This document shows, piece after piece, positions 23,479 to 62,602 of a stretch of DNA of 64,000 bases. The notes beneath the pieces were generated by a model that saw nothing but the letters and a program-made list of their open reading frames with translations, was not told where the DNA came from and did no database searches. The stretch spans positions 1 to 64,000 of IMG/VR virus record IMGVR_UViG_3300034417_000033, one strand, 5' to 3'. The stretch is from a virus. Both the position numbers and the translations under genes were made by a program. Every line of letters begins with the position of its first letter. The stretch's first letter is position 1.

Positions 23479-23808
23479 TCAGATATTTACCTGATACGTT
23501 AGTTTTAGGATCAAGATATCCTCGTTTGATTGCATCGATAGTATGCACCATAACTCGAAAGTGTGTTCTATTCCTTCCCAGTACCAGTCGTATTTAACTG
23601 TGCCATCTGACATCACATGCTTATCCGAAGGGCCATCTGCTCTGTGGCGGAGGCCTTGCTTATACCAGTACTCTGATCCACATTGCATAATTCTAGCAGG
23701 GCCATCAGATCGGTGCACCTTTCCAGTCATGGAATCACGATAGGTGGTATTGCCGGTTTCAAGATCAACATGAATCCGCATGCAGTTGTTAACGTCTACA
23801 TATTCCAT
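23479..23808 (-). CDS. H(R/N)xDGPA beta-hairpin (MORN-variant-like) repeat protein
   Basis: HRSDGPA, HRADGPS; C-terminal F..WC....EDILILKLTY. Confidence 0.75.
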   Translation of the reverse strand: MEYVDVNNCMRIHVDLETGNTTYRDSMTGKVHRSDGPARIMQCGSEYWYKQGLRHRADGPSDKHVMSDGTVKYDWYWEGIEHTFELWCILSMQSNEDILILKLTYQVNI

Positions 23809-24044
23809 TTAGTGTTGTACTTCAGTTTAAGAAAGATTATTTCTTCATCAGTTTTGCCGGTTCTTTCACACCATTCCTCAAAAGTGACACGGACATTATC
23901 TAAATACCATATTGCCCAACCATCTAGAACGAAGGCAGGGCCTGACTCATCATGGAATTCAGCAATTCCATCCTTGTCAACCTTTATCTTGTCGTCCTTC
24001 ATCACATGGTTTAATATCTGTTCTACTAGCGTTGGCGTTTTCAT
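23796..24044 (-). CDS. HxxxGPA repeat protein
   Basis: HDESGPA; FEEWC....EEIIFLKLKY. Confidence 0.7.
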   Translation of the reverse strand: MKTPTLVEQILNHVMKDDKIKVDKDGIAEFHDESGPAFVLDGWAIWYLDNVRVTFEEWCERTGKTDEEIIFLKLKYNTKWNM

Positions 24045-24180
24045 TTTCCATCCTAAATATTTCACGAAGTGCTCTATTAAGACTTTCTTTCTCTTCTTCA
24101 GTCCACGGAGTCATCGGGTATCCTGGGCAAGCGTGGAGGCCTGACAGCCCGCAAGTTGGGCAACTCATTGCATACACCAA
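23977..24180 (-). CDS. Small Cys/His (zinc-ribbon-like) protein
   Basis: CPTCG..G.HACPG; PWTEEE. Confidence 0.55.
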   Translation of the reverse strand: MVYAMSCPTCGLSGLHACPGYPMTPWTEEEKESLNRALREIFRMENENANASRTDIKPCDEGRQDKG

Positions 24181-24232
24181 TAAATTGCTGCAACTAATAC
24201 AACAACAGCAAACAATTGAAACGTTCTGTATC

Positions 24233-24478
24233 TCACTTTATATCCTTATCTATGCCTCGCATAGAATCTAGTATTTTTGCCATGTAGTCACGCATCCGAG
24301 ACCAGTGTTCTCTCTGATACTCCTCTTGTGTCCACCCACCCTTCTCTAGAAGAAAGTTTTCCATCTCTGGGTCATCAGATTCAATATCATTCCAGATTCG
24401 TTTCTGCCCTGACATGATTCGGTCCATATCTTCATATGGTATTTTTCTTAACTTTCGAAAAAAATCATCTTCACTCAT
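24233..24478 (-). CDS. GWT..E paralogue family, copy 1
   Basis: MSEDDFFRKLRKIPYE...EKGGWTQEEY. Confidence 0.75.
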   Translation of the reverse strand: MSEDDFFRKLRKIPYEDMDRIMSGQKRIWNDIESDDPEMENFLLEKGGWTQEEYQREHWSRMRDYMAKILDSMRGIDKDIK

Positions 24479-24689
24479 ATTGATCTCTGAGCATCTGCTT
24501 GGCCATTTTCTTCACTTGTGCTTCTTGCATTTTGTGAAAAGCCTCTTCATATTCCGAAAAAGTCCAACCGTGTTCTTTCAGGGTAGCGCCGAGATCGTCA
24601 AACTCGGCGGCCCAGTATGCGTTATGGACAGTCTCGAACGTGGACTGTCGCAAACGTGTCACGAATTTGTCTTTCTCTTCTTCACTCAT
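24471..24689 (-). CDS. GWT..E paralogue family, copy 2
   Basis: MSEEEKDKFVTRLRQSTFE...EHGWTFSEY. Confidence 0.75.
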   Translation of the reverse strand: MSEEEKDKFVTRLRQSTFETVHNAYWAAEFDDLGATLKEHGWTFSEYEEAFHKMQEAQVKKMAKQMLRDQYE

Positions 24690-24871
24690 CCCAAATTCAC
24701 CACTATACTAAAACGTCGCTTGGATTCCTCACGAAATTCATCCATTGTCCAGCCAGCTTCGGATAATATTATGGAATAGTTTGGCCTCTCATAGATGTTT
24801 TCGTTGATGCGGGCATACAGTTCCTCGTACGGAATCCTAACCAACCGTCGAACAACATCGTCTTCACTCAT
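24686..24871 (-). CDS. GWT..E paralogue family, copy 3
   Basis: MSEDDVVRRLVRIPYEE...EAGWTMDEF. Confidence 0.75.
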   Translation of the reverse strand: MSEDDVVRRLVRIPYEELYARINENIYERPNYSIILSEAGWTMDEFREESKRRFSIVVNLG

Positions 24872-25670
24872 GTCCTAATTCTAATACCAGACATTTACAT
24901 GCGCCGCCACTTTTTAGGAACTCACTCATGTTCAACTGTACAACATTGTGTCCAGTTACAGCTAACCGCTCAACCAAATAGTCGGAGCACTTTGGCATAA
25001 TTACTGTGTGCCCAATAGAAACTGCATTACATGCAAATTTCATTGCATCTTCATCGTCAACAACAATTAGTTTGCTGCCGATCGTCTGAACAATGTATTC
25101 CCATGACTTTTTCGTGAATGCGGACTGTGCTGCTAAGTAATACCCTGTATCTAAAGGACAGAAACATGTGTCCAAATGATACCAACGCGGATCAACTAGT
25201 CGAACTGTGTGAAGGTAATCCTCTAGGACTCTCCCTTCGATCTCAAAGATTGCTTCTTTGGCCGAACGTTGCCCATAACCAAGCCAGTATTCGCCATAAC
25301 GATCAACTAAACAGTCACCAGCACCTTCAAACGGAACTTCTGACACGTATGTTTCCCAATCGTTCTCGTCAAAGAACTTTGCATACACTTCAGTTTCGCC
25401 CTGTCGCTCTTTATGCTTGAACGAACTAATCAAAGCCACACCTGTTTCTGGATTAACAACAGCAGCGTTGGCAACAAACACCATATCTGGCAATCCTTCA
25501 ATTGGATCTAGGATTACCACAGTTGCGTGTTCTGCTACTGCATCGTACAAGTTTTCCCATTGTTCCTTGGCTTCTACAACATCAACATAGTTTATGTTTC
25601 CAACCATATGCGGGTTGATCTCATAAGCTACGTTAAAAAAATCAGGCGGACACATCAGGAAAGTCTTCAT
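24864..25670 (-). CDS. Amidinotransferase / DDAH-arginine deiminase superfamily enzyme
   Basis: LMCPP..F.V.YEINP.M, LPDMVF.ANA, FEGAGD, YHLDTCF, EFLKSGGACKC. Confidence 0.9.
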   Translation of the reverse strand: MKTFLMCPPDFFNVAYEINPHMVGNINYVDVVEAKEQWENLYDAVAEHATVVILDPIEGLPDMVFVANAAVVNPETGVALISSFKHKERQGETEVYAKFFDENDWETYVSEVPFEGAGDCLVDRYGEYWLGYGQRSAKEAIFEIEGRVLEDYLHTVRLVDPRWYHLDTCFCPLDTGYYLAAQSAFTKKSWEYIVQTIGSKLIVVDDEDAMKFACNAVSIGHTVIMPKCSDYLVERLAVTGHNVVQLNMSEFLKSGGACKCLVLELGHE

Positions 25671-26084
25671 CTACGCTTTTTCTCCAGTCTTAAGGTTATA
25701 TTTTAGTTTTAAAAAGATTCTGTCTTCGTTAGATTTCTCAGTTATATCACACCAAACTTTAAATGTGTACTCAGTGCCATGTATATAAAATTCATACTCC
25801 GTGTCGAGGCCAGGAATGTGTGTGACGCAGGCTGGACCTTCAGTGTTGTGATGCAGTCCGTATAAATACCACCATTCATCGCCATCGGCAAACACGACGG
25901 CTGGGCCGGTGTCGTTATGCATCTTGCCGCCGGCGACTGCTAAGTAGTTAATATCAATTATACACGATCCTACATTAATAGCAAACTCATTAATGTATTC
26001 GCCATCAGGAACTAGGGAATCACCACGTTCATCGTCATAGTATGCTTCTCCGTGTGATGATGGGAATATTAAGTGTGGCTTCAT
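25671..26084 (-). CDS. HNxxGPA repeat protein
   Basis: HNDTGPA, HNTEGPA; FKVWC...EDRIFLKLKY. Confidence 0.75.
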   Translation of the reverse strand: MKPHLIFPSSHGEAYYDDERGDSLVPDGEYINEFAINVGSCIIDINYLAVAGGKMHNDTGPAVVFADGDEWWYLYGLHHNTEGPACVTHIPGLDTEYEFYIHGTEYTFKVWCDITEKSNEDRIFLKLKYNLKTGEKA

Positions 26085-26485
26085 GTTCGATCTCTAGAAT
26101 CAGGGTGGTATTTTAGCTTTAAAAACAGTATTTCCTGTGGATCTTTTTTTAATTCTCTGCACCATGCATCAAACGTGAAATTCACACCATCAATACACCA
26201 CTCTTTGTATGGTATATCAGAAGGGAACTCTGGCCACCACACTGCGGGCCCATCTGTTCGATGCTTTTTCCCTTTTCGAAACCATGTTTGCCGACCGTTT
26301 GTCTCTACTGTAGCTGGAAGGCCGTCATCTCTGTGCATGAAGGTGTCATCAATTGTCATTTCAGTAAACATGCAGCCTAAAGCTGAAATGTTTTTGTATG
26401 TGCCGTAACGGAGATCCGGCGTGAAGATGCGTTTCTCCTCGTCGTGTCTAATTCTAATAGCATACACTCGTTCACGTTCAGTCAT
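26081..26485 (-). CDS. HRxDGPA repeat protein
   Basis: HRDDGLPA, HRTDGPA; FDAWC...QEILFLKLKY; start MTERER. Confidence 0.75.
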   Translation of the reverse strand: MTERERVYAIRIRHDEEKRIFTPDLRYGTYKNISALGCMFTEMTIDDTFMHRDDGLPATVETNGRQTWFRKGKKHRTDGPAVWWPEFPSDIPYKEWCIDGVNFTFDAWCRELKKDPQEILFLKLKYHPDSRDRT

Positions 26486-26627
26486 CTGTCTTTCCAGGAA
26501 ATGTGCCAAGGAATCGTCGCATTGTTTCTTCAAGTTCAGCAATTTCTTCCACTGTCCATTCCTCGATGGGAGTTGATAGTGGTGTCGGTTGCTGTTTCTT
26601 GAGCTTTGCTACTACTGCACTTAACAT
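26478..26627 (-). CDS. 49-aa protein not in the ORF track (MLSAVVAKLKKQQPTPLSTPIEEWTVEEIAELEETMRRFLGTFPGKTDD)
   Basis: Translated by hand; fills the gap; P..EWT.EE resembles 23977..24180. Confidence 0.6.
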   Translation of the reverse strand: MLSAVVAKLKKQQPTPLSTPIEEWTVEEIAELEETMRRFLGTFPGKTDD

Positions 26628-26632
26628 GCTCA

Positions 26633-26959
26633 CTATTTTTGATTGTCGTGTACTAAGAGCTGATTGAACGTTTCAATTCCTACTTCATTACACTCAGTTA
26701 AATAGATTCCGTACACGCTATCTGGAGAAAGTTCATTTTTGTAGACATCTTTTTTTACGTGTTTTATGGAAAACGGTGGGTGCTTTACAGTGATAAACTT
26801 ATCTAGGCCAGCCGGTGGAATACCTTGATCCCTAGCTTTAGCTGCACCTTTTGCAAATGCTGCGACCTTGCCGCAATCAGTGCTTGGGGTTGATGTACAC
26901 CCGCTAAGTAGGACAAATGCAGCAATTAATAAAAGGACTGTAGTGATACGCTGTGTCAT
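26633..26959 (-). CDS. Lipoprotein
   Basis: Lipobox LSGC; C...A......ARDQG.P motif. Confidence 0.7.
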   Translation of the reverse strand: MTQRITTVLLLIAAFVLLSGCTSTPSTDCGKVAAFAKGAAKARDQGIPPAGLDKFITVKHPPFSIKHVKKDVYKNELSPDSVYGIYLTECNEVGIETFNQLLVHDNQK

Positions 26960-26966
26960 ATAGCAC

Positions 26967-27314
26967 CTAATCAGTAGTAATGGTTAGCTTTTCGTTAATA
27001 CAACATGTTTTCAACTGTTCGAACACTTCAGGCTGGACATTTACGCAACCCTTAGTGATAAATCTGTCCTTTACGTTCTTGCTCTGTATTCTTAAATCCC
27101 TATGTTGCTCTGGATTCAACAACCAAGTTCTGTGTATAGCGTATATTATAGTGTCTGTCTCGTGAAATTGCAAGACATTTCCACCATATCCGTATTTTTC
27201 TGTTAGTCTTTCCACAACATCGAACTCTCCAACCGGAGTGCTGTGCCCGACTAAAGCAGGATAGCATTGCATGGCAAAGCAGATTGTGGCAGTTTTTAGG
27301 CTTATTATTATCAT
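26967..27314 (-). CDS. L,D-transpeptidase (YkuD-like) catalytic domain protein
   Basis: PALVG..TP.G.F, YAIHR.W, ITKGCVNV (His...Cys catalytic pattern). Confidence 0.75.
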   Translation of the reverse strand: MIIISLKTATICFAMQCYPALVGHSTPVGEFDVVERLTEKYGYGGNVLQFHETDTIIYAIHRTWLLNPEQHRDLRIQSKNVKDRFITKGCVNVQPEVFEQLKTCCINEKLTITTD

Positions 27315-27318
27315 CGTT

Positions 27319-27340
27319 AAAAAGCCCCTTGCGGGGCTTC
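27319..27340 (-). terminator. Intrinsic terminator closing the 29128-27359 operon
   Basis: AAGCCCC-GCAA-GGGGCTT plus T-run. Confidence 0.85.
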
Positions 27341-27358
27341 CTTTTTACTTACTTAGTG

Positions 27359-27730
27359 TTACTCGCCGATTGGCTTCTTTTGAACTTCAATGTAAACAGG
27401 CTTCGGAGCCTTGTGCATAACTGGTTGGAAATACAAGTATTCCCCACGTCCCATTTTCGGACTCCAGTTGTACCCTTCACATTTGATGTTGCTTGCATCA
27501 ATCTCTACACAATCAACTTGGACAACTCTTGGCCAAATTGTTGCTGCTGTTGGGAAACCAACCATGTATTGTGGCACATGGTAAGCTTCTTCATCACCGA
27601 AAACATTTAATGCTGCGTCTGTGGTTGTTCCCAAAAACACATTTTCGTTTGATGTACCAGCAAAAGTTTTTGATGCCACAAGCAATCCTAGAGCTATAAC
27701 AATTGCTACTACAAATTTAATGCGTGGCAT
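27359..27730 (-). CDS. Secreted protein, unknown family
   Basis: Signal peptide; YHVPQYMVGFPTAATIWPRVV..C...CEGYNW.P.MGRGEYL. Confidence 0.8.
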   Translation of the reverse strand: MPRIKFVVAIVIALGLLVASKTFAGTSNENVFLGTTTDAALNVFGDEEAYHVPQYMVGFPTAATIWPRVVQVDCVEIDASNIKCEGYNWSPKMGRGEYLYFQPVMHKAPKPVYIEVQKKPIGE

Positions 27731-27745
27731 AATGTATACCTCCTA

Positions 27746-28228
27746 TTACTTGCGTTTGTGGGATGCGCGCTGCTCTGCAAAGTCCGGACATTTAACACCT
27801 GATACTTCCATTGCGTCACGGTTGTCGTCATCCATACACATACGAGCTACAGCCGCTGCACGAAGACCCATGTTCCACATTTCACGCGAGTTTTTCAACA
27901 TTACGCAATTGCTATCAGTCCAGGTTGTGCCTGCGCTGATTGAAATGCCATATGTTGATACGCCTGCAGAGCTGGAGCCCATACAAGTGTCGTTACTAGT
28001 GATCAGTTGTGGTCCAATTGCAGTGTTGGGTGCTGCACGTGGATTGTCAACTTCAGTGTTTGAAACAGGCGCATAATTCAAGTTGCCCATTGCGTTGCCA
28101 CTTACGGCAGCTCCAGCTTCAGACTGTGTGCCAACGTTTGTTTCTACGTTAGCATTTGCCTTTGCAACTTCTGCAAACGAGTGCGTTGCAAGCATGGTAG
28201 CGAATACAGCAAAAATTACCTTCTTCAT
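27746..28228 (-). CDS. Secreted protein with DTCMGS...GTTW.D..C four-Cys domain
   Basis: Signal peptide MKKVIF...SFA; low-complexity N-terminus; paralogue of 30842..31555. Confidence 0.8.
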   Translation of the reverse strand: MKKVIFAVFATMLATHSFAEVAKANANVETNVGTQSEAGAAVSGNAMGNLNYAPVSNTEVDNPRAAPNTAIGPQLITSNDTCMGSSSAGVSTYGISISAGTTWTDSNCVMLKNSREMWNMGLRAAAVARMCMDDDNRDAMEVSGVKCPDFAEQRASHKRK

Positions 28229-28254
28229 AATATTCTCCAAAAAGTTTAGTGGGT

Positions 28255-28280
28255 TGAGTGACATCGCAAGATGTCACTCA
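28255..28280. promoter_or_regulatory. Perfect 11-bp intercistronic hairpin
   Basis: TGAGTGACATC-GCAA-GATGTCACTCA with no T-tail. Confidence 0.7.
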
Positions 28281-28291
28281 CTCGGGCTGTA

Positions 28292-29128
28292 TTACGGTTG
28301 GATGTCAATGCCGTTAACTGACACTTCGCCGCTTGCGCCGGCCAATGCACCTGCACCAGCTAAGCCACCGTTAATCACACCGCCGAACGCGCCAGTGTGG
28401 CCGGCTGGGATAGTGTTAACTTGTGTGCTGTTGCTGTAAGCTAGGGCCGAAGTACCTGCTACGCTGGTATCGGAAGTAGTAACAGTGCTGGTTGGACCAA
28501 CTGCAAATCCAAACAACGTGCCTTGTGTGGTAGTTGTTTTGGTTTCTTTGTCGGCAGATGCCGCTGCGTCGAAGCCGGATTCGTTTGTTCCAAGAACATA
28601 TCGACCTTGGTTTGTACCAGCAATAACAAGTGAGCCTGCGCCGGAAACTGAACCACCAGCTACTACGCCGCCAACATCATCATTGCCGATGATCGCGCCT
28701 ACGCCGCTAGCTTGTGCTACGCCCAAACCACCTGCCGCTGCGCCGCCGAAGCCAGAACCAGTCGAAGTATTAACTGCGATAGTTTCAGTGCTAGTTGCAG
28801 TGTTGCCAGAAACATGTACGTCAGTGTCAACAGTGTTAGTACGGTCAGTAGTACGCAGTCCAATTGGCCCAAAGATCGGAGTATTGGTTACGTCGGTGAT
28901 TGCCGAGGTTTTGTCGTATTTTGCATCAGCTGCTACATCAACATGTGCTGCGGTGATGTTTGCACCATACGATGTGCTAGTGCCATTGCCTGCCGATGCC
29001 GCGAGTGCTGCGCTGCCGCTAATTGCGGAGTCAGTACCCGATGCCGTTGCAACTGCAACGCCTGCTGCCATTGCGCCAGTTGAAAACATTGCTGCTGCAA
29101 TTGCAGCGGATAAAAGAACTTTTTTCAT
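28292..29128 (-). CDS. Secreted Gly/Ala/Ser/Thr-rich two-repeat protein (putative fibre subunit)
   Basis: Signal peptide MKKVLL...AMA; no Cys; internal duplication. Confidence 0.8.
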   Translation of the reverse strand: MKKVLLSAAIAAAMFSTGAMAAGVAVATASGTDSAISGSAALAASAGNGTSTSYGANITAAHVDVAADAKYDKTSAITDVTNTPIFGPIGLRTTDRTNTVDTDVHVSGNTATSTETIAVNTSTGSGFGGAAAGGLGVAQASGVGAIIGNDDVGGVVAGGSVSGAGSLVIAGTNQGRYVLGTNESGFDAAASADKETKTTTTQGTLFGFAVGPTSTVTTSDTSVAGTSALAYSNSTQVNTIPAGHTGAFGGVINGGLAGAGALAGASGEVSVNGIDIQP

Positions 29129-29238
29129 TTATTTAAATCTCCAAAATTTTTGGGTTGTGTTGAGAGCCTTGTAAACCATTTCACAAGAATCCATTTCTGC
29201 TTTGGTTTCCTTACTACTACATTTAAATTGATCGCCTA

Positions 29239-29356
29239 AAGCTACAATTTACATAACAAAGTATACACTACATCATACACGCTGTCAACCACTGTTTTGT
29301 TACTTGAAGCTACAATTTACAAAAGACATAATACAGTATTTCTACGTACATGTCAA
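29239..29356 (-). promoter_or_regulatory. Tandem duplicated sigma70 promoters (68-bp period) with a 15-bp direct repeat
   Basis: TTGACA-17-TATTAT (29356-29328) and TTGACA-17-TATACT (29288-29260); AAGCTACAATTTACA at 29239 and 29307. Confidence 0.8.
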
Positions 29357-29366
29357 CATCTTTTTA

Positions 29367-29792
29367 CTATTTTTTTATACAAATGTCCGGAAAATCTGCT
29401 TTTTCACCTATTTCCAGAAATTTAACGGATGATACATAGCCACTTGGAGGAACTAAAAGGACAAACTCCTTAAATTCCCACGGTTTTTGTGCAAAGGTAC
29501 CCACGTATGTTGTTTCATATGGTCCCAATGCAACAAAATCGTCATAAGTTCTGTTTTCTAAGTCCACCAATCTCCATTGTGGTTGAACACACCAGGATAA
29601 TGGACTGTAGTTCACATACCTAACATCATACTGTTGTAACGTAATTCCATTTACGACAACTTCTGATTCTCTAACTTGTATTTCTACTTTATGTTCTTCA
29701 CTTACTATTTGCCAACCACCGTCGCGGTAGGTTCTTGTCGATGCGCATCCTGCTATTAATACAACTGACATAACCAAAGAGAATAATCTCAT
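29367..29792 (-). CDS. Lipoprotein
   Basis: Lipobox IAGC. Confidence 0.7.
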   Translation of the reverse strand: MRLFSLVMSVVLIAGCASTRTYRDGGWQIVSEEHKVEIQVRESEVVVNGITLQQYDVRYVNYSPLSWCVQPQWRLVDLENRTYDDFVALGPYETTYVGTFAQKPWEFKEFVLLVPPSGYVSSVKFLEIGEKADFPDICIKK

Positions 29793-30325
29793 TGATTTTC
29801 CGCCGTATCGTAAGGGACAATATACAGCGGCGTTCCATTAGGAAGGTTCAGCATATAGTCATAAAAGAATTTTGTTGGTACGTTTATGCAGCCATTAGTG
29901 ATGTTGTTATCATCAGGAGTTGGGCTGTCTAATCTTTCTTGGCGTTTTTGTTCTGGGTAGCCTAGCCATACAGGGTGCATAGCTAGTAAGGTTTTGTTTC
30001 CTTCTACAAACGCAATTACAGGTTCCTTTAATGTAGCACTGTAATAATGCTTTGTATTGAACACGCCGGCTGGTGTTACATATCCTGCTACACCATCGGG
30101 CAAAGAATCTATATCTATTGTATCTAGTTTCTTTTTGCCGTAAAGAGCAGGAGCGGTATACTCTTTGTCGTCAATAATAACTGACAGAGTTCCGTTAGGT
30201 TTGTCTGCAATAATTTTACTATCAGCGTGTGACATTTCTGCCACACACATTAATAAACTACTTGCAAACAGTTGTATGATAATACTGTTGCGAGTAAAGT
30301 GGATCGTTCGAGTCATGTGTATCAC
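29789..30325 (-). CDS. Exported L,D-transpeptidase-like protein
   Basis: APALYG, TPAGVF, LAMHPVW, RL.SPTP.DN.ITNGCINVP. Confidence 0.8.
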   Translation of the reverse strand: MIHMTRTIHFTRNSIIIQLFASSLLMCVAEMSHADSKIIADKPNGTLSVIIDDKEYTAPALYGKKKLDTIDIDSLPDGVAGYVTPAGVFNTKHYYSATLKEPVIAFVEGNKTLLAMHPVWLGYPEQKRQERLDSPTPDDNNITNGCINVPTKFFYDYMLNLPNGTPLYIVPYDTAENQ

Positions 30326-30569
30326 CTGACCTAAAAGTAAAAAGTTTGCTGTGCGGCATAATTTTACAAGCTAACTTGGTTCGTATGTCATCCATTTTAT
30401 CAGAAGCACGATCTTTATATTCGTAAATCTTCTCTTTTATTTCACCAGAATGATCATGTTCGCCAGGTAAGTAATCGTCGTCATCAGCATACGAAAATCC
30501 AGTAAGAACGATAGCACCTATCAAAACAACAGCTTTGTATATGTGTGTATTATTCATTTGTATCTCCAT
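30258..30569 (-). CDS. Small secreted protein
   Basis: Signal peptide ending SYA|DDDD. Confidence 0.6.
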   Translation of the reverse strand: MEIQMNNTHIYKAVVLIGAIVLTGFSYADDDDYLPGEHDHSGEIKEKIYEYKDRASDKMDDIRTKLACKIMPHSKLFTFRSGDTHDSNDPLYSQQYYHTTVCK

Positions 30570-30595
30570 AGTGAAAGGTCTTTCGACCTTTCACT
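30570..30595. promoter_or_regulatory. Perfect 11-bp hairpin with GAAA tetraloop on the minus strand
   Basis: AGTGAAAGGTC-TTTC-GACCTTTCACT. Confidence 0.65.
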
Positions 30596-30603
30596 GTTAC
30601 AGA

Positions 30604-30822
30604 TTAACCATTAACTGGTTTCGGCGTAGTTGGTGCTTCATGTGGTGCTGGAACTGGTTTAACCATCTCAACACGATCACACTTAATTAAGCCCATTTTT
30701 TCTTCAAGACGTAAAATACCATATCTTGCAGTAAAAATAACTAAAAGTACCATTACAAAAAAACGCCAGTGACTACCTAAAAAATAAAAAAATTTCATAA
30801 ATCCTCCGTGCAAGAATATCAA
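30604..30822 (-). CDS. Small single-TM protein with Pro-rich tail
   Basis: Hydrophobic segment; tail PTTPKPVNG echoes TTSKPIGG of the upstream gene. Confidence 0.6.
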   Translation of the reverse strand: MIFLHGGFMKFFYFLGSHWRFFVMVLLVIFTARYGILRLEEKMGLIKCDRVEMVKPVPAPHEAPTTPKPVNG

Positions 30823-30841
30823 TCATATTCTTGCTGTTTAA

Positions 30842-31555
30842 TTAACCGCCTATTGGTTTCGATGTTGTCGGAGTTGGCACAGGAACTGCAACTGGTGGAA
30901 GTGTAACTGCGATTCCACATGCAATTTTTTCTGCGTCAGATCCGGCGGTTGCTACCGCTTCCATAATCGACTTTTTGTCTTTGCATAAGTAAGACAATGC
31001 AACATTTTGGTGACCTGCGCTGTGTAAGAAACGAGCGTCCTTACGAACTACGCAGTCGTGGTCTTTCCATGTTGTACCGAAGCTTAAACCGAAGGTAACT
31101 CCTTGTCCGCCAGCCGTAGTGGAACCCATACATGTATCTTCCGATGCTGTAAGGTTCGGTGCAAATGCTGTGTTAACAGGAATTCTTGCTTCTTTTTCTA
31201 TGTGTACGCTATTATCAGTTTCGCCTTCAACGTATAGCGACGCTTTGCTTTCGTTATCGTTCTTGCTGCTATTGCTTTGGTGTTGGTAAGCATCGCCGCC
31301 TTTTCCGCCTTTACCACCATCTGCATATGCAGAGGAGTAAGAATCGGAATTGCCGCTGTTCTTCACCTCTCCACCCCTTGCGGATGAATAAGAGTCAGAG
31401 CTAGTGATGCCAACGTTAGTGTTAGAACTTCTAACATCAACATCAGATATCGCTGCTTGACCTTGAGCTTGACCTTGTACTTGGTCTGGCCCAAATGCGA
31501 ATGCAGAAGATGTAACCATCACTGCGAGACCCGCAGCGAAAATTATATTTTTCAT
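30842..31555 (-). CDS. Secreted low-complexity protein with DTCMGS...GTTW.D..C domain
   Basis: Signal peptide; QGQAQGQ and S/G/N-rich repeats (SDSYSSA x2); paralogue of 27746. Confidence 0.8.
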   Translation of the reverse strand: MKNIIFAAGLAVMVTSSAFAFGPDQVQGQAQGQAAISDVDVRSSNTNVGITSSDSYSSARGGEVKNSGNSDSYSSAYADGGKGGKGGDAYQHQSNSSKNDNESKASLYVEGETDNSVHIEKEARIPVNTAFAPNLTASEDTCMGSTTAGGQGVTFGLSFGTTWKDHDCVVRKDARFLHSAGHQNVALSYLCKDKKSIMEAVATAGSDAEKIACGIAVTLPPVAVPVPTPTTSKPIGG

Positions 31556-31717
31556 ATTGTATATCTCCATGTTACTGTTTACAGGAAATCCGTGTGGTTT
31601 TTTACAAGGATTTCTCGGGTAAAACCAGTTCTCGGGCTGGCTTCACCAATGGTATTTAGCGAATTTAGACTAAAGTACCCTAATATACCGGAGATATACG
31701 TCAGAAAATGGAGGGTT

Positions 31718-31957
31718 TTAGAACTCTTGACGCAGTGCCGAGTCACGTCTGCGTTGCTGTTCTACTTTAACAGCAATTTTAGAAGCTCGGGTTTTCTTAA
31801 CAGATGGCTTTTCATAAAAGTCACGCTCTCTGAGATCCTTAAGGATACCAGACGTTTGAACTTTCTTAGTGAAGATTTTGAAAGCACGGTCGAAGTTGTC
31901 GTTTTTAACTTCTACAGTGATGCCGTAGGTCTGTTTGTAACTATTGTATCTTTTCAT
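31718..31957 (-). CDS. rpsU: 30S ribosomal protein bS21
   Basis: V.VKNDNFDRAFKIF.KKV...GIL.DLRER.FYEKPS.K. Confidence 0.9.
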   Translation of the reverse strand: MKRYNSYKQTYGITVEVKNDNFDRAFKIFTKKVQTSGILKDLRERDFYEKPSVKKTRASKIAVKVEQQRRRDSALRQEF

Positions 31958-33180
31958 ATGTCTGCCTTTTGGGGTTGTGGTTGTTTTTCCGTAGTATATA
32001 CTGCTGTGCCGTTTTTGTCAATAAAAATATTAATCACGCCTTCCTTTCTTAATCGCGGTAAAACAAACTGCACCTTACCTAACGACTTTTCCATCAACGT
32101 GCGCAATCCTCTTGCACCTGTTTTATTCTTGATGCTTTTTACTGCAACATCACGAACAAAATCTTTATCAAACTCTAATTCAACATCGTCAATTTTAAAC
32201 AGAACTTTATATTGATCAATTAAGTTATTTTTAGGTTCAGTCAATACACGAACCATCATATCTTCATCAAGTGCTTGGAAAGTAACAGTAACAGGGAAGC
32301 GGCCAATAAACTCTCTAATGAAACCATATTGGTGCAAATCTTCCGACTCTACTAAATTTAAAACACTTTCCTTTTTATCTCTTGCTTCAACTTTAGCAGA
32401 GAAGCCAATGCTTGTGCCTAAAGACAACCGCTTGCGTATAATTTCTTCGAGGCCAACAAACGCTCCACCAACAATAAACAAAACATCTTTTGTATTAAAG
32501 TCGATTGTTTCTTCTCTGTGACTGCCTGGCTTTTGTATCTGAACTTTATCGCCATCTACTGCACGAAGCAATGCTTGCTGTACACCTTCACCGGAAACAT
32601 CTTTGGCGCCTACGCCATCTACCTTTTTTGTCTTCTTATCGATCTCATCAATAAACACAATACCTTTCTGTGCTTTATTGATATCGTTGCCTGCTACTTT
32701 CAGCAGTCTTTCAAAAATGGATTCGATGTTGCCACCTACATAACCTGCTTCAGTTAATGTAGTTGCATCAGCAGTAACAAATGGGATATCTAACAGTTTA
32801 GCAATTGTGGAAGCAACTAATGTTTTTCCACAGCCGGATGGACCCATCATCATTACGTTTGCTTTTTGTAATTCAGTTTCGTCCACTACTGGATTAGAAA
32901 TTCTCTTGTAGTGATTATACAGTGCAACCGCAAGTGTTTCTTTTGCATCGTCCTGGCCAACAACATATGTGTCGAGATATTCTTTTATTTCTTCTGGAGT
33001 TTTACGGACTGCAACGACAGTGTCGTCTACAGTTGTTGCATTCCCTGCAATCAGGCCGAAACTCAGCGTAATACACTCGTCGCATATGTACGGAGTGTCA
33101 GCTCCTTTGTCAGGACCTTCGATTAATTTTTTTACGCTGCTTCTACTTTTGTTGCAAAAGGAACATTTTAAATCTGACAT
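31954..33180 (-). CDS. clpX: ATP-dependent Clp protease ATP-binding subunit
   Basis: CSFC..CDEC zinc domain, GPSGCGKT, TTLTEAGYVG, DVSGEGVQQALL, IGF loop, TGARGLR. Confidence 0.97.
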   Translation of the reverse strand: MSDLKCSFCNKSRSSVKKLIEGPDKGADTPYICDECITLSFGLIAGNATTVDDTVVAVRKTPEEIKEYLDTYVVGQDDAKETLAVALYNHYKRISNPVVDETELQKANVMMMGPSGCGKTLVASTIAKLLDIPFVTADATTLTEAGYVGGNIESIFERLLKVAGNDINKAQKGIVFIDEIDKKTKKVDGVGAKDVSGEGVQQALLRAVDGDKVQIQKPGSHREETIDFNTKDVLFIVGGAFVGLEEIIRKRLSLGTSIGFSAKVEARDKKESVLNLVESEDLHQYGFIREFIGRFPVTVTFQALDEDMMVRVLTEPKNNLIDQYKVLFKIDDVELEFDKDFVRDVAVKSIKNKTGARGLRTLMEKSLGKVQFVLPRLRKEGVINIFIDKNGTAVYTTEKQPQPQKADI

Positions 33181-62575: not shown

Positions 62576-62602
62576 TATAGCAGTTCCTTATAAAGATGTC
62601 AA
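62574..62602 (-). promoter_or_regulatory. Consensus sigma70 promoter
   Basis: TTGACA-17bp-TATAAT; the -35 overlaps the uvsW TGA. Confidence 0.8.

Follow-up and report, generated by a model that had tools for sequence, protein, structure and literature searches.

An unnamed cassette of predicted exported proteins in a giant-phage fragment and in Betaproteobacteria, possibly for a cell-envelope structure

The DNA analysed here (the window) is the first 64 kb, positions 1 to 64,000, of IMG/VR virus record IMGVR_UViG_3300034417_000033, which is 106,907 bp long and estimated to be 29% complete. The replicative helicase is 63% identical to that of the Pseudomonas jumbo phage PA5oct and its kin, and the record is therefore regarded as a fragment of an uncultured giant phage. 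The window carries, on the minus strand, three consecutive genes (genes 1, 2 and 3) whose products bear predicted Sec-type signal peptides, opened by two tandem promoters and closed by a terminator-like hairpin (Table 1). An earlier note, made from the sequence alone, had described these genes as a self-contained phage operon for a secreted, possibly fibre- or amyloid-like surface structure. The three genes do form one unit, and they are co-inherited, with their order unchanged, in bacteria and other phages. The operon is not self-contained, since the cassette continues beyond the terminator with genes for a YkuD-fold protein (gene 4) and a lipoprotein (gene 5). The unit is read here as the front part of a five-gene envelope cassette, extending from 29356 down to 26633, which may be a Sec-exported assembly module with gene 1 as its main building block; this reading is given slightly less than an even chance. 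Judged by its genes, the cassette is an undescribed and unnamed family common to giant phages and to Comamonadaceae and Oxalobacteraceae.

Table 1. Features of the cassette and of the adjoining exported module in the window
Feature	Position	Strand	Description
Two tandem sigma70-consensus promoters	29260..29356	minus	within a duplication spaced by 68 bp
Gene 1 5' leader	29129..29259	minus	about 125 nt from the proximal promoter
Gene 1	28292..29128	minus	278 amino acids (aa); Sec-type signal peptide; G/A/T/S/V-rich; presumed major product; from open reading frame (ORF) and composition
Intercistronic hairpin, gene 1/gene 2	28255..28280	minus	perfect 11-bp stem, no T tail
Gene 2	27746..28228	minus	160 aa; signal peptide; disordered low-complexity N-terminal part and conserved 4-Cys domain
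Gene 3	27359..27730	minus	123 aa; signal peptide (cleavage between TFA and GT); 2-Cys core; Pro-containing tail ending QKKPIGE
Intrinsic-terminator-like hairpin	27317..27345	minus	GC-rich stem 27322-27339 and T run; -15.9 kcal/mol, z -3.0
Gene 4	26967..27314	minus	115-aa mini L,D-transpeptidase-fold (YkuD-like) protein; no signal peptide; phrog_38499, E 2.7e-41
Gene 5	26633..26959	minus	small lipoprotein, lipobox LLSGC; from ORF
Second analogous exported module	29367-31570	minus	just upstream of the gene 1-3 unit
178-aa YkuD-fold paralogue	29789-30325	minus	signal peptide present
Gene 2 paralogue	30842..31570	minus	phrog_20531, E 2.5e-24; match to gene 2 hidden Markov model (HMM), 1.3e-28; heads the second exported module

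In all three proteins, the N-terminus has a basic n-region followed by a hydrophobic core and an AxA-type cleavage site. These features are kept in the homologues, and conserved Cys pairs also speak for export. In gene 1, sequence reading places the predicted cleavage between AMA and AG. The mature part contains no Cys and consists of 17% G, 16% A, 15% T, 10% S and 9% V (58% for G, A, T and S combined), with charged residues amounting to only about 10%, in agreement with the low-charge, low-complexity composition described earlier. The same description had gene 1 built from two imperfect repeats. Alignment of the two halves gave a score of 79 vs 53 +/- 9 in shuffles, equalled by 3 of 500 shuffles, and a profile-profile comparison of the family halves found no match; of the features described earlier, this duplication is the one weak point. 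An exhaustive HMMER search of 1.84 billion representative proteins returned only seven relatives of gene 1, all distant; each has a signal peptide and resembles gene 1 in length and composition. A word-indexed search returned only gene 1 itself because low complexity saturated the candidates. Gene 1 alone as the query found no loci in viral contigs, and a closer alignment of four sequences had no match in a scan of prokaryotic genome contigs. Structure prediction with AlphaFold2 (AF2) from a 24-sequence alignment gave an all-beta meander of long beta-hairpins with a predicted local distance difference test (pLDDT) of 61 and a predicted template modelling score (pTM) of 0.49.

Gene 2 also agrees with the earlier description of a low-complexity N-terminus followed by a 4-Cys domain, and gene 3 with that of a small 2-Cys protein. 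The listed ORF of gene 2 begins at 28264; the ATG at 28228 is preferred, with a GGAG ribosome-binding site 8 nt upstream and a predicted signal peptide cleaved between SFA and EV. Gene 2 has 217 homologues, and the family alignment contains 13 invariant columns, including D80-S85 (DTCMGS) and three of the four Cys. The AF2 model of gene 2, based on 128 sequences, shows a disordered stalk followed by a beta-hairpin and four helices, and 10-residue blocks over residues 111-150 average pLDDT values of 92-94. A fold search with this model gave no credible match (best Z 2.9; pediocin-like rows with Z < 3), and the ESM Atlas returned only unnamed and mostly viral clusters for gene 2 and nothing useful for gene 3. 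Gene 3 has 119 homologues and invariant PTAAT, PRV and GRGEYL motifs, and it occurs in two forms, one with a tail of 24-52 residues that is often Pro-rich and ends in, for example, VPxKKxxE or KKPLG, and the other ending 7-13 residues past the core. Searches with genes 1-3 found no match in Pfam, NCBIfam or PADLOC or, with profiles, in PDB sequences, and in PHROGs only gene 2 could be placed (phrog_20531, E 3.9e-16), in a family without assigned function. In addition, genes 1 and 3 had no protein match in 50,697 deposited phage records, and the DNA of the region had no match among deposited phage genomes.

Both promoters, reported earlier as near-consensus, match the sigma70 consensus at 11 of 12 positions (distal, TTGACA-17-TATTAT, 29356-29328; proximal, TTGACA-17-TATACT, 29288-29260) and belong to a 32-nt repeat that is 81% identical with a spacing of 68 nt. 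The window contains 11 sigma70 matches of at least 11/12 vs 2.0 in shuffles (both strands, about 5-fold enriched). Ten of these 11 sit on the coding strand; each has a perfect TTGACA, and the spacer is 17 nt in most of them; further examples lie at 62602, 58276, 41865 and 16623. The enrichment and strand bias are beyond chance, and the phage therefore uses consensus host-type promoters, two of which drive the gene 1-3 unit. Early expression and receptor masking, which the earlier note had also proposed, may be inferred from the sigma70-like promoters only. The gene 1 leader, put at about 120 nt in that note, has no fold stability beyond shuffles (z +0.75). Since an Rfam scan of 26000-32500 gave no match at E<=1, the leader carries no cyclic di-GMP (c-di-GMP) riboswitch.

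The hairpin after gene 1, noted earlier for its lack of a T-tail, is far more stable than shuffles (-23 kcal/mol in a 76-nt context, z -5.5). When the gene 1-gene 2 spacers of 12 further bacterial and phage loci were folded, 11 of them contained a strong perfect stem of about 8-13 bp; the hairpin sequences are unrelated between loci and the position is kept. Gene 1 also diverges faster than its neighbours, with a mean pairwise identity of 33% vs 45-46% for genes 2 and 3. Together, the hairpin and the faster divergence are consistent with one major product that is made in larger amounts than two minor partners. The arrangement recognized here in the earlier note, with a dominant low-complexity subunit followed by a stem-loop and then minor subunits, is thus conserved. 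The strong terminator described after gene 3 is also present, and the start codon of gene 4 follows its stem by 8 nt with no separate promoter, so that gene 4 could be expressed only by read-through. In this region (27314-27345), the only Shine-Dalgarno-like bases of gene 4 (GGGG) lie inside the terminator stem, and translation of gene 4 may therefore be coupled to termination.

The conservation of the unit was traced with an alignment of gene 3 as the query. A scan of one genome per prokaryotic species recovered 53 bacterial loci, and all of the named ones belong to Comamonadaceae (Variovorax, Comamonas, Polaromonas, Xenophilus) or Oxalobacteraceae. In 49 of the 53 loci, gene 3 is immediately preceded by a gene 2 homologue; of the remaining four, three or more are truncated by the end of the contig. 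Upstream DNA was sufficient in 48 loci, and in these gene 2 is immediately preceded by the gene for a signal-bearing protein of about 230 aa with 63-88% G/A/S/T/N/V (44 recognized by a strict heuristic and 4 by HMM or inspection). In IMG/VR, the corresponding scan found 30 loci, some of them on contigs of 135-385 kb, with gene 2 before gene 3 in 30/30 and a gene 1 equivalent in 17 of the 26 with room for one; in contig L002, the homologues of genes 1-3 are arranged as in the window. The gene order thus recurs in about 48 chromosomal loci and in at least 24 metagenomic contigs, most of them from giant phages, which shows that genes 1-3 are a real, conserved cassette. Where viral loci lack gene 1, gene 2 often has a low-complexity N-terminal extension of 390-470 aa. 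Gene 2 homologues with very long repetitive stalks of GGA and KGD repeats, replacing a separate gene 1, were observed at L063:3573-4979 and L065:3769-4977. A tree of the concatenated gene 2 and gene 3 cores resolves separate clades for the two bacterial families, Comamonadaceae and Oxalobacteraceae, as well as groups at the genus level, and the phage sequences fall in between; the tree follows bacterial taxonomy, and the cassette is therefore considered a resident system in bacteria. The window copy sits on a long branch nearest to the phage locus L059 (58% identity), and no direction of transfer can be stated because the tree is unrooted. In an even sample of 401 Burkholderiales genomes, gene 3 was present in two, one of them the genome on which the search was centred, so the cassette is patchy in bacteria. 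A role for the products as virion proteins was rejected, because bacteria carry the cassette on the chromosome together with a dedicated regulator.

The regulatory context of the relatives points to biofilm control. A response regulator of the LuxR type (REC and GerE domains) is divergent from gene 1 in 35 bacterial loci. In five phage loci (L059, L060, L061, L078 and L079), the c-di-GMP-I riboswitch RF01051 lies directly upstream of the cassette, with matches of 57-64 bits vs a gathering score of 35. No RF01051 match was found in the window leader or elsewhere in the 107-kb contig, nor in ten further loci (nine bacterial and the viral L002). In Variovorax paradoxus VAI-C (L088, CP063167.1), the cassette genes are labelled hypothetical, the locus tag of gene 2 is missing from the table, and a sensor diguanylate cyclase and two response regulators flank the cassette. 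A diguanylate cyclase beside the regulator was considered as a general feature and rejected, as it was seen in this strain and is not general among the loci.

Beyond the terminator, gene 4 scores below the Pfam cut-off for the YkuD family (14.7 bits; 21.7 bits for the 178-aa paralogue; gathering cut-off 23.4) but matches phrog_38499 strongly. His61, Gly89, Cys90 and Asn92 are invariant in 17 sequences of the gene 4 family, giving a catalytic His and a GC(I/V)N-type motif, in agreement with the catalytic motif of LdtMt2 and Ldtfm. Four more Cys (C12, C17, C104 and C105) are nearly invariant in gene 4 and its homologues; they could form disulfides or a metal site and bear on whether the gene 4 protein is cytoplasmic. 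A gene 4 homologue lies directly after gene 3 in 7 bacterial and about 21 viral loci, and gene 5 homologues follow the YkuD-like gene in 7 viral loci. The presence of the enzyme is correlated with the form of gene 3. Among loci with downstream DNA, the gene 3 tail and a YkuD-fold gene occur together in 27 and are both lacking in 46; there are 4 exceptions, at least one of them (L087) produced by the tail pattern match. These counts overstate independence because one Variovorax-Comamonas clade gives most of the loci with neither. In viral locus L058 (5868-6794), and also in L063, L065, L067, L070, L072 and L077, the YkuD-fold gene is followed by one for a caspase-like protein (Peptidase_C14, E 1.4e-31) with a membrane segment at its C-terminus; the window has no such gene.

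The second exported module consists of the gene 2 paralogue, a 72-aa membrane protein, a 103-aa secreted protein, the 178-aa YkuD-fold protein and a lipoprotein. The gene 2 paralogue has a longer Q/S/G/N-rich stalk and a tail ending in SKPIGG, and the 72-aa protein (30604-30822) has a tail ending in PKPVNG; both tails are similar to those of gene 3. An 11/12 promoter at 32021-31993 would give this module a leader of about 420 nt, for which no Rfam match was found. Just downstream of the cassette, at 23479-26542 on the minus strand, are four small paralogues that match one another in phmmer searches (26081-26542, 25671-26084, 23479-23808 and 23796-24065).

Overall, the layout of the cassette suggests a cell-envelope coat or fibre. 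Host RNA polymerase would read the two consensus promoters, and the hairpin after gene 1 would stop or protect part of the transcripts. The G/A/T/S-rich beta-protein of gene 1 would consequently be made in excess and be assembled, as the basic unit, into a layer or fibre associated with the envelope. Genes 2 and 3, made in smaller amounts, would be organising or anchoring partners, gene 2 with a disulfide-stabilised domain carried on a flexible low-complexity stalk. The L,D-transpeptidase-fold enzyme might attach gene 3 to peptidoglycan via the lysines in its Pro-rich tail, much as LdtA-C attach Braun's lipoprotein. For the phage, the role of the cassette would be to remodel the envelope or surface of the infected cell. 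Several observations weigh against this reading. Polymerisation is hypothetical, and the AF2 model of gene 1, which is poor, shows no solenoid and no barrel. The window has neither the riboswitch nor the regulator of its relatives. The correlation between tail and enzyme is partly phylogenetic, and the tail lysines are set back 3-4 residues from the C-terminus, unlike the terminal lysine of Braun's lipoprotein (Lpp). Periplasmic transpeptidation by gene 4 is doubtful because no signal peptide precedes its domain: the N-terminus of the protein aligns with the first YkuD strands, which in the 178-aa paralogue follow the signal peptide. Finally, neither the cassette nor the whole 107-kb contig, which covers about 29% of the genome, was found to encode an outer-membrane channel, usher or secretin, and export beyond the periplasm is thereby left unexplained. 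PF03783 (CsgG) had no match in the contig, where positive controls matched, and none of the nine proteins of the island is CsgG-like; PF00577 (usher) also had no match in the contig, and no chaperone or pilin family was found among the island proteins. The earlier note had likewise seen no such signature.

The stop at Sec export would also fit a periplasmic set for envelope remodelling or superinfection exclusion, in which non-polymeric proteins act singly on peptidoglycan, the outer membrane or incoming phage DNA, so as to protect the infected cell or alter its wall, and gene 1 is an abundant filler or decoy. Such a set would account for the two L,D-transpeptidase-fold genes and several lipoproteins of the island, and a general periplasmic function in phages would suit the occurrence of the gene 2 domain alone in many cultured phages of Pelagibacter, Ralstonia and Achromobacter. 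However, in Comamonadaceae the operon is chromosomal, is inherited vertically and has a dedicated response regulator, which argues for a primary role that is cellular and not anti-phage. PADLOC gave no match, and the conserved hairpin and compositional conservation of gene 1 fit a structural major subunit. This explanation is considered doubtful, though worth keeping in view. A true functional amyloid, as raised in the earlier note, was also considered, with gene 1 forming cross-beta fibres outside the cell, nucleated by gene 2 as CsgB nucleates CsgA. The low-charge G/A/S/T/N/V composition, the major/minor operon design, the ability of the gene 2 low-complexity stalk to replace gene 1 in some loci, the divergent CsgD-type (REC-LuxR) regulator in bacteria and the c-di-GMP control in relatives all speak for such a system. 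However, Pfam hmmscan of gene 1, gene 2 and the gene 2 paralogue found no curlin repeat or other amyloid family at E<=1; gene 1 has no short regular repeats beyond the weak two-fold duplication, its AF2 model gives long hairpins at low confidence and not a solenoid, and the contig has no channel of the CsgG or FapF type. An amyloid in the strict sense is thus quite improbable.

The long hairpins of the gene 1 model have also raised the question of a membrane-active protein, which would insert long amphipathic hairpins to form an oligomeric pore in the outer membrane or to disrupt it, with a link to lysis or permeability. The only, and weak, likenesses of the model are indeed to the membrane-inserted hairpins of MACPF, gasdermin and aegerolysin pores. 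These matches are generic to long hairpins (template modelling score <=0.25, Z <=4.7), and the fold search with this poor model found no barrel (best Z 4.7). In addition, the C-termini of the gene 1 family are mostly Pro, not Phe, Tyr or Trp, and no C-terminal aromatic beta-signal was found. Chromosomal conservation with a response regulator in free-living bacteria is also ill-suited to a lysis factor, and this explanation is held to be very improbable indeed. The envelope-assembly reading of the cassette is the best supported one. In its boldest form, the cassette would be a new Sec-dependent coat or fibre system without a dedicated outer-membrane channel, in which a hypervariable G/A/S/T-rich major subunit is organised by two conserved small proteins and the structure is held to peptidoglycan via a Pro-rich, VPxKKxxE-type tag at the C-terminus of gene 3, processed by the mini L,D-transpeptidase; it would be wired to c-di-GMP or biofilm control in bacteria and captured by giant phages to re-dress the host surface. 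In that full form, the proposal is unlikely. If the cassette does specify an envelope structure, it would represent a surface or matrix system, so far undescribed, in Betaproteobacteria that are common in soil and water (such as Variovorax, Comamonas and Polaromonas), and giant phages would carry a whole structural envelope module, in some cases under a host biofilm signal. The pairing of a tail with a mini-transpeptidase could be a new way of tethering proteins to the cell wall. The three core proteins are unannotated, and assigning them a function could cover several hundred orphan proteins.

Known systems offer partial parallels. Curli are encoded by csgBA with the divergent regulator CsgD and are exported by CsgEFG. 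The cassette resembles them in its Sec-exported, low-charge major subunit, which is encoded first, in a minor partner with a related low-complexity part, in the divergent REC-LuxR regulator of its bacterial relatives, and in links to c-di-GMP control. It differs in having no curlin repeats and no CsgG, CsgE or CsgF, in the lack of detectable sequence or fold similarity to Csg proteins, and in including L,D-transpeptidase-fold and lipoprotein genes. Braun's lipoprotein of E. coli is attached to peptidoglycan through its C-terminal lysine by the L,D-transpeptidases LdtA, LdtB and LdtC. Similarly, a YkuD-fold gene with a His/Cys/Asn triad is co-inherited here with gene 3, which encodes a small exported protein with lysines near its C-terminus; gene 3, however, has no lipobox and its lysines are not the last residue, gene 4 is a signal-less protein of 115 aa, and the covalent link is hypothetical. 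Some surface or adhesin genes are controlled by c-di-GMP-I riboswitches, as with Vc1 before gbpA in Vibrio cholerae. The five related phage cassettes with RF01051 directly upstream follow this arrangement, whereas the window has two consensus sigma70 promoters in place of the aptamer. Among phage protein families, gene 2 and its paralogue both match phrog_20531, whose domain stands alone in cultured phages of Pelagibacter, Ralstonia, Achromobacter and Roseobacter, in contrast to the window, where it is part of a cassette with genes 1 and 3.

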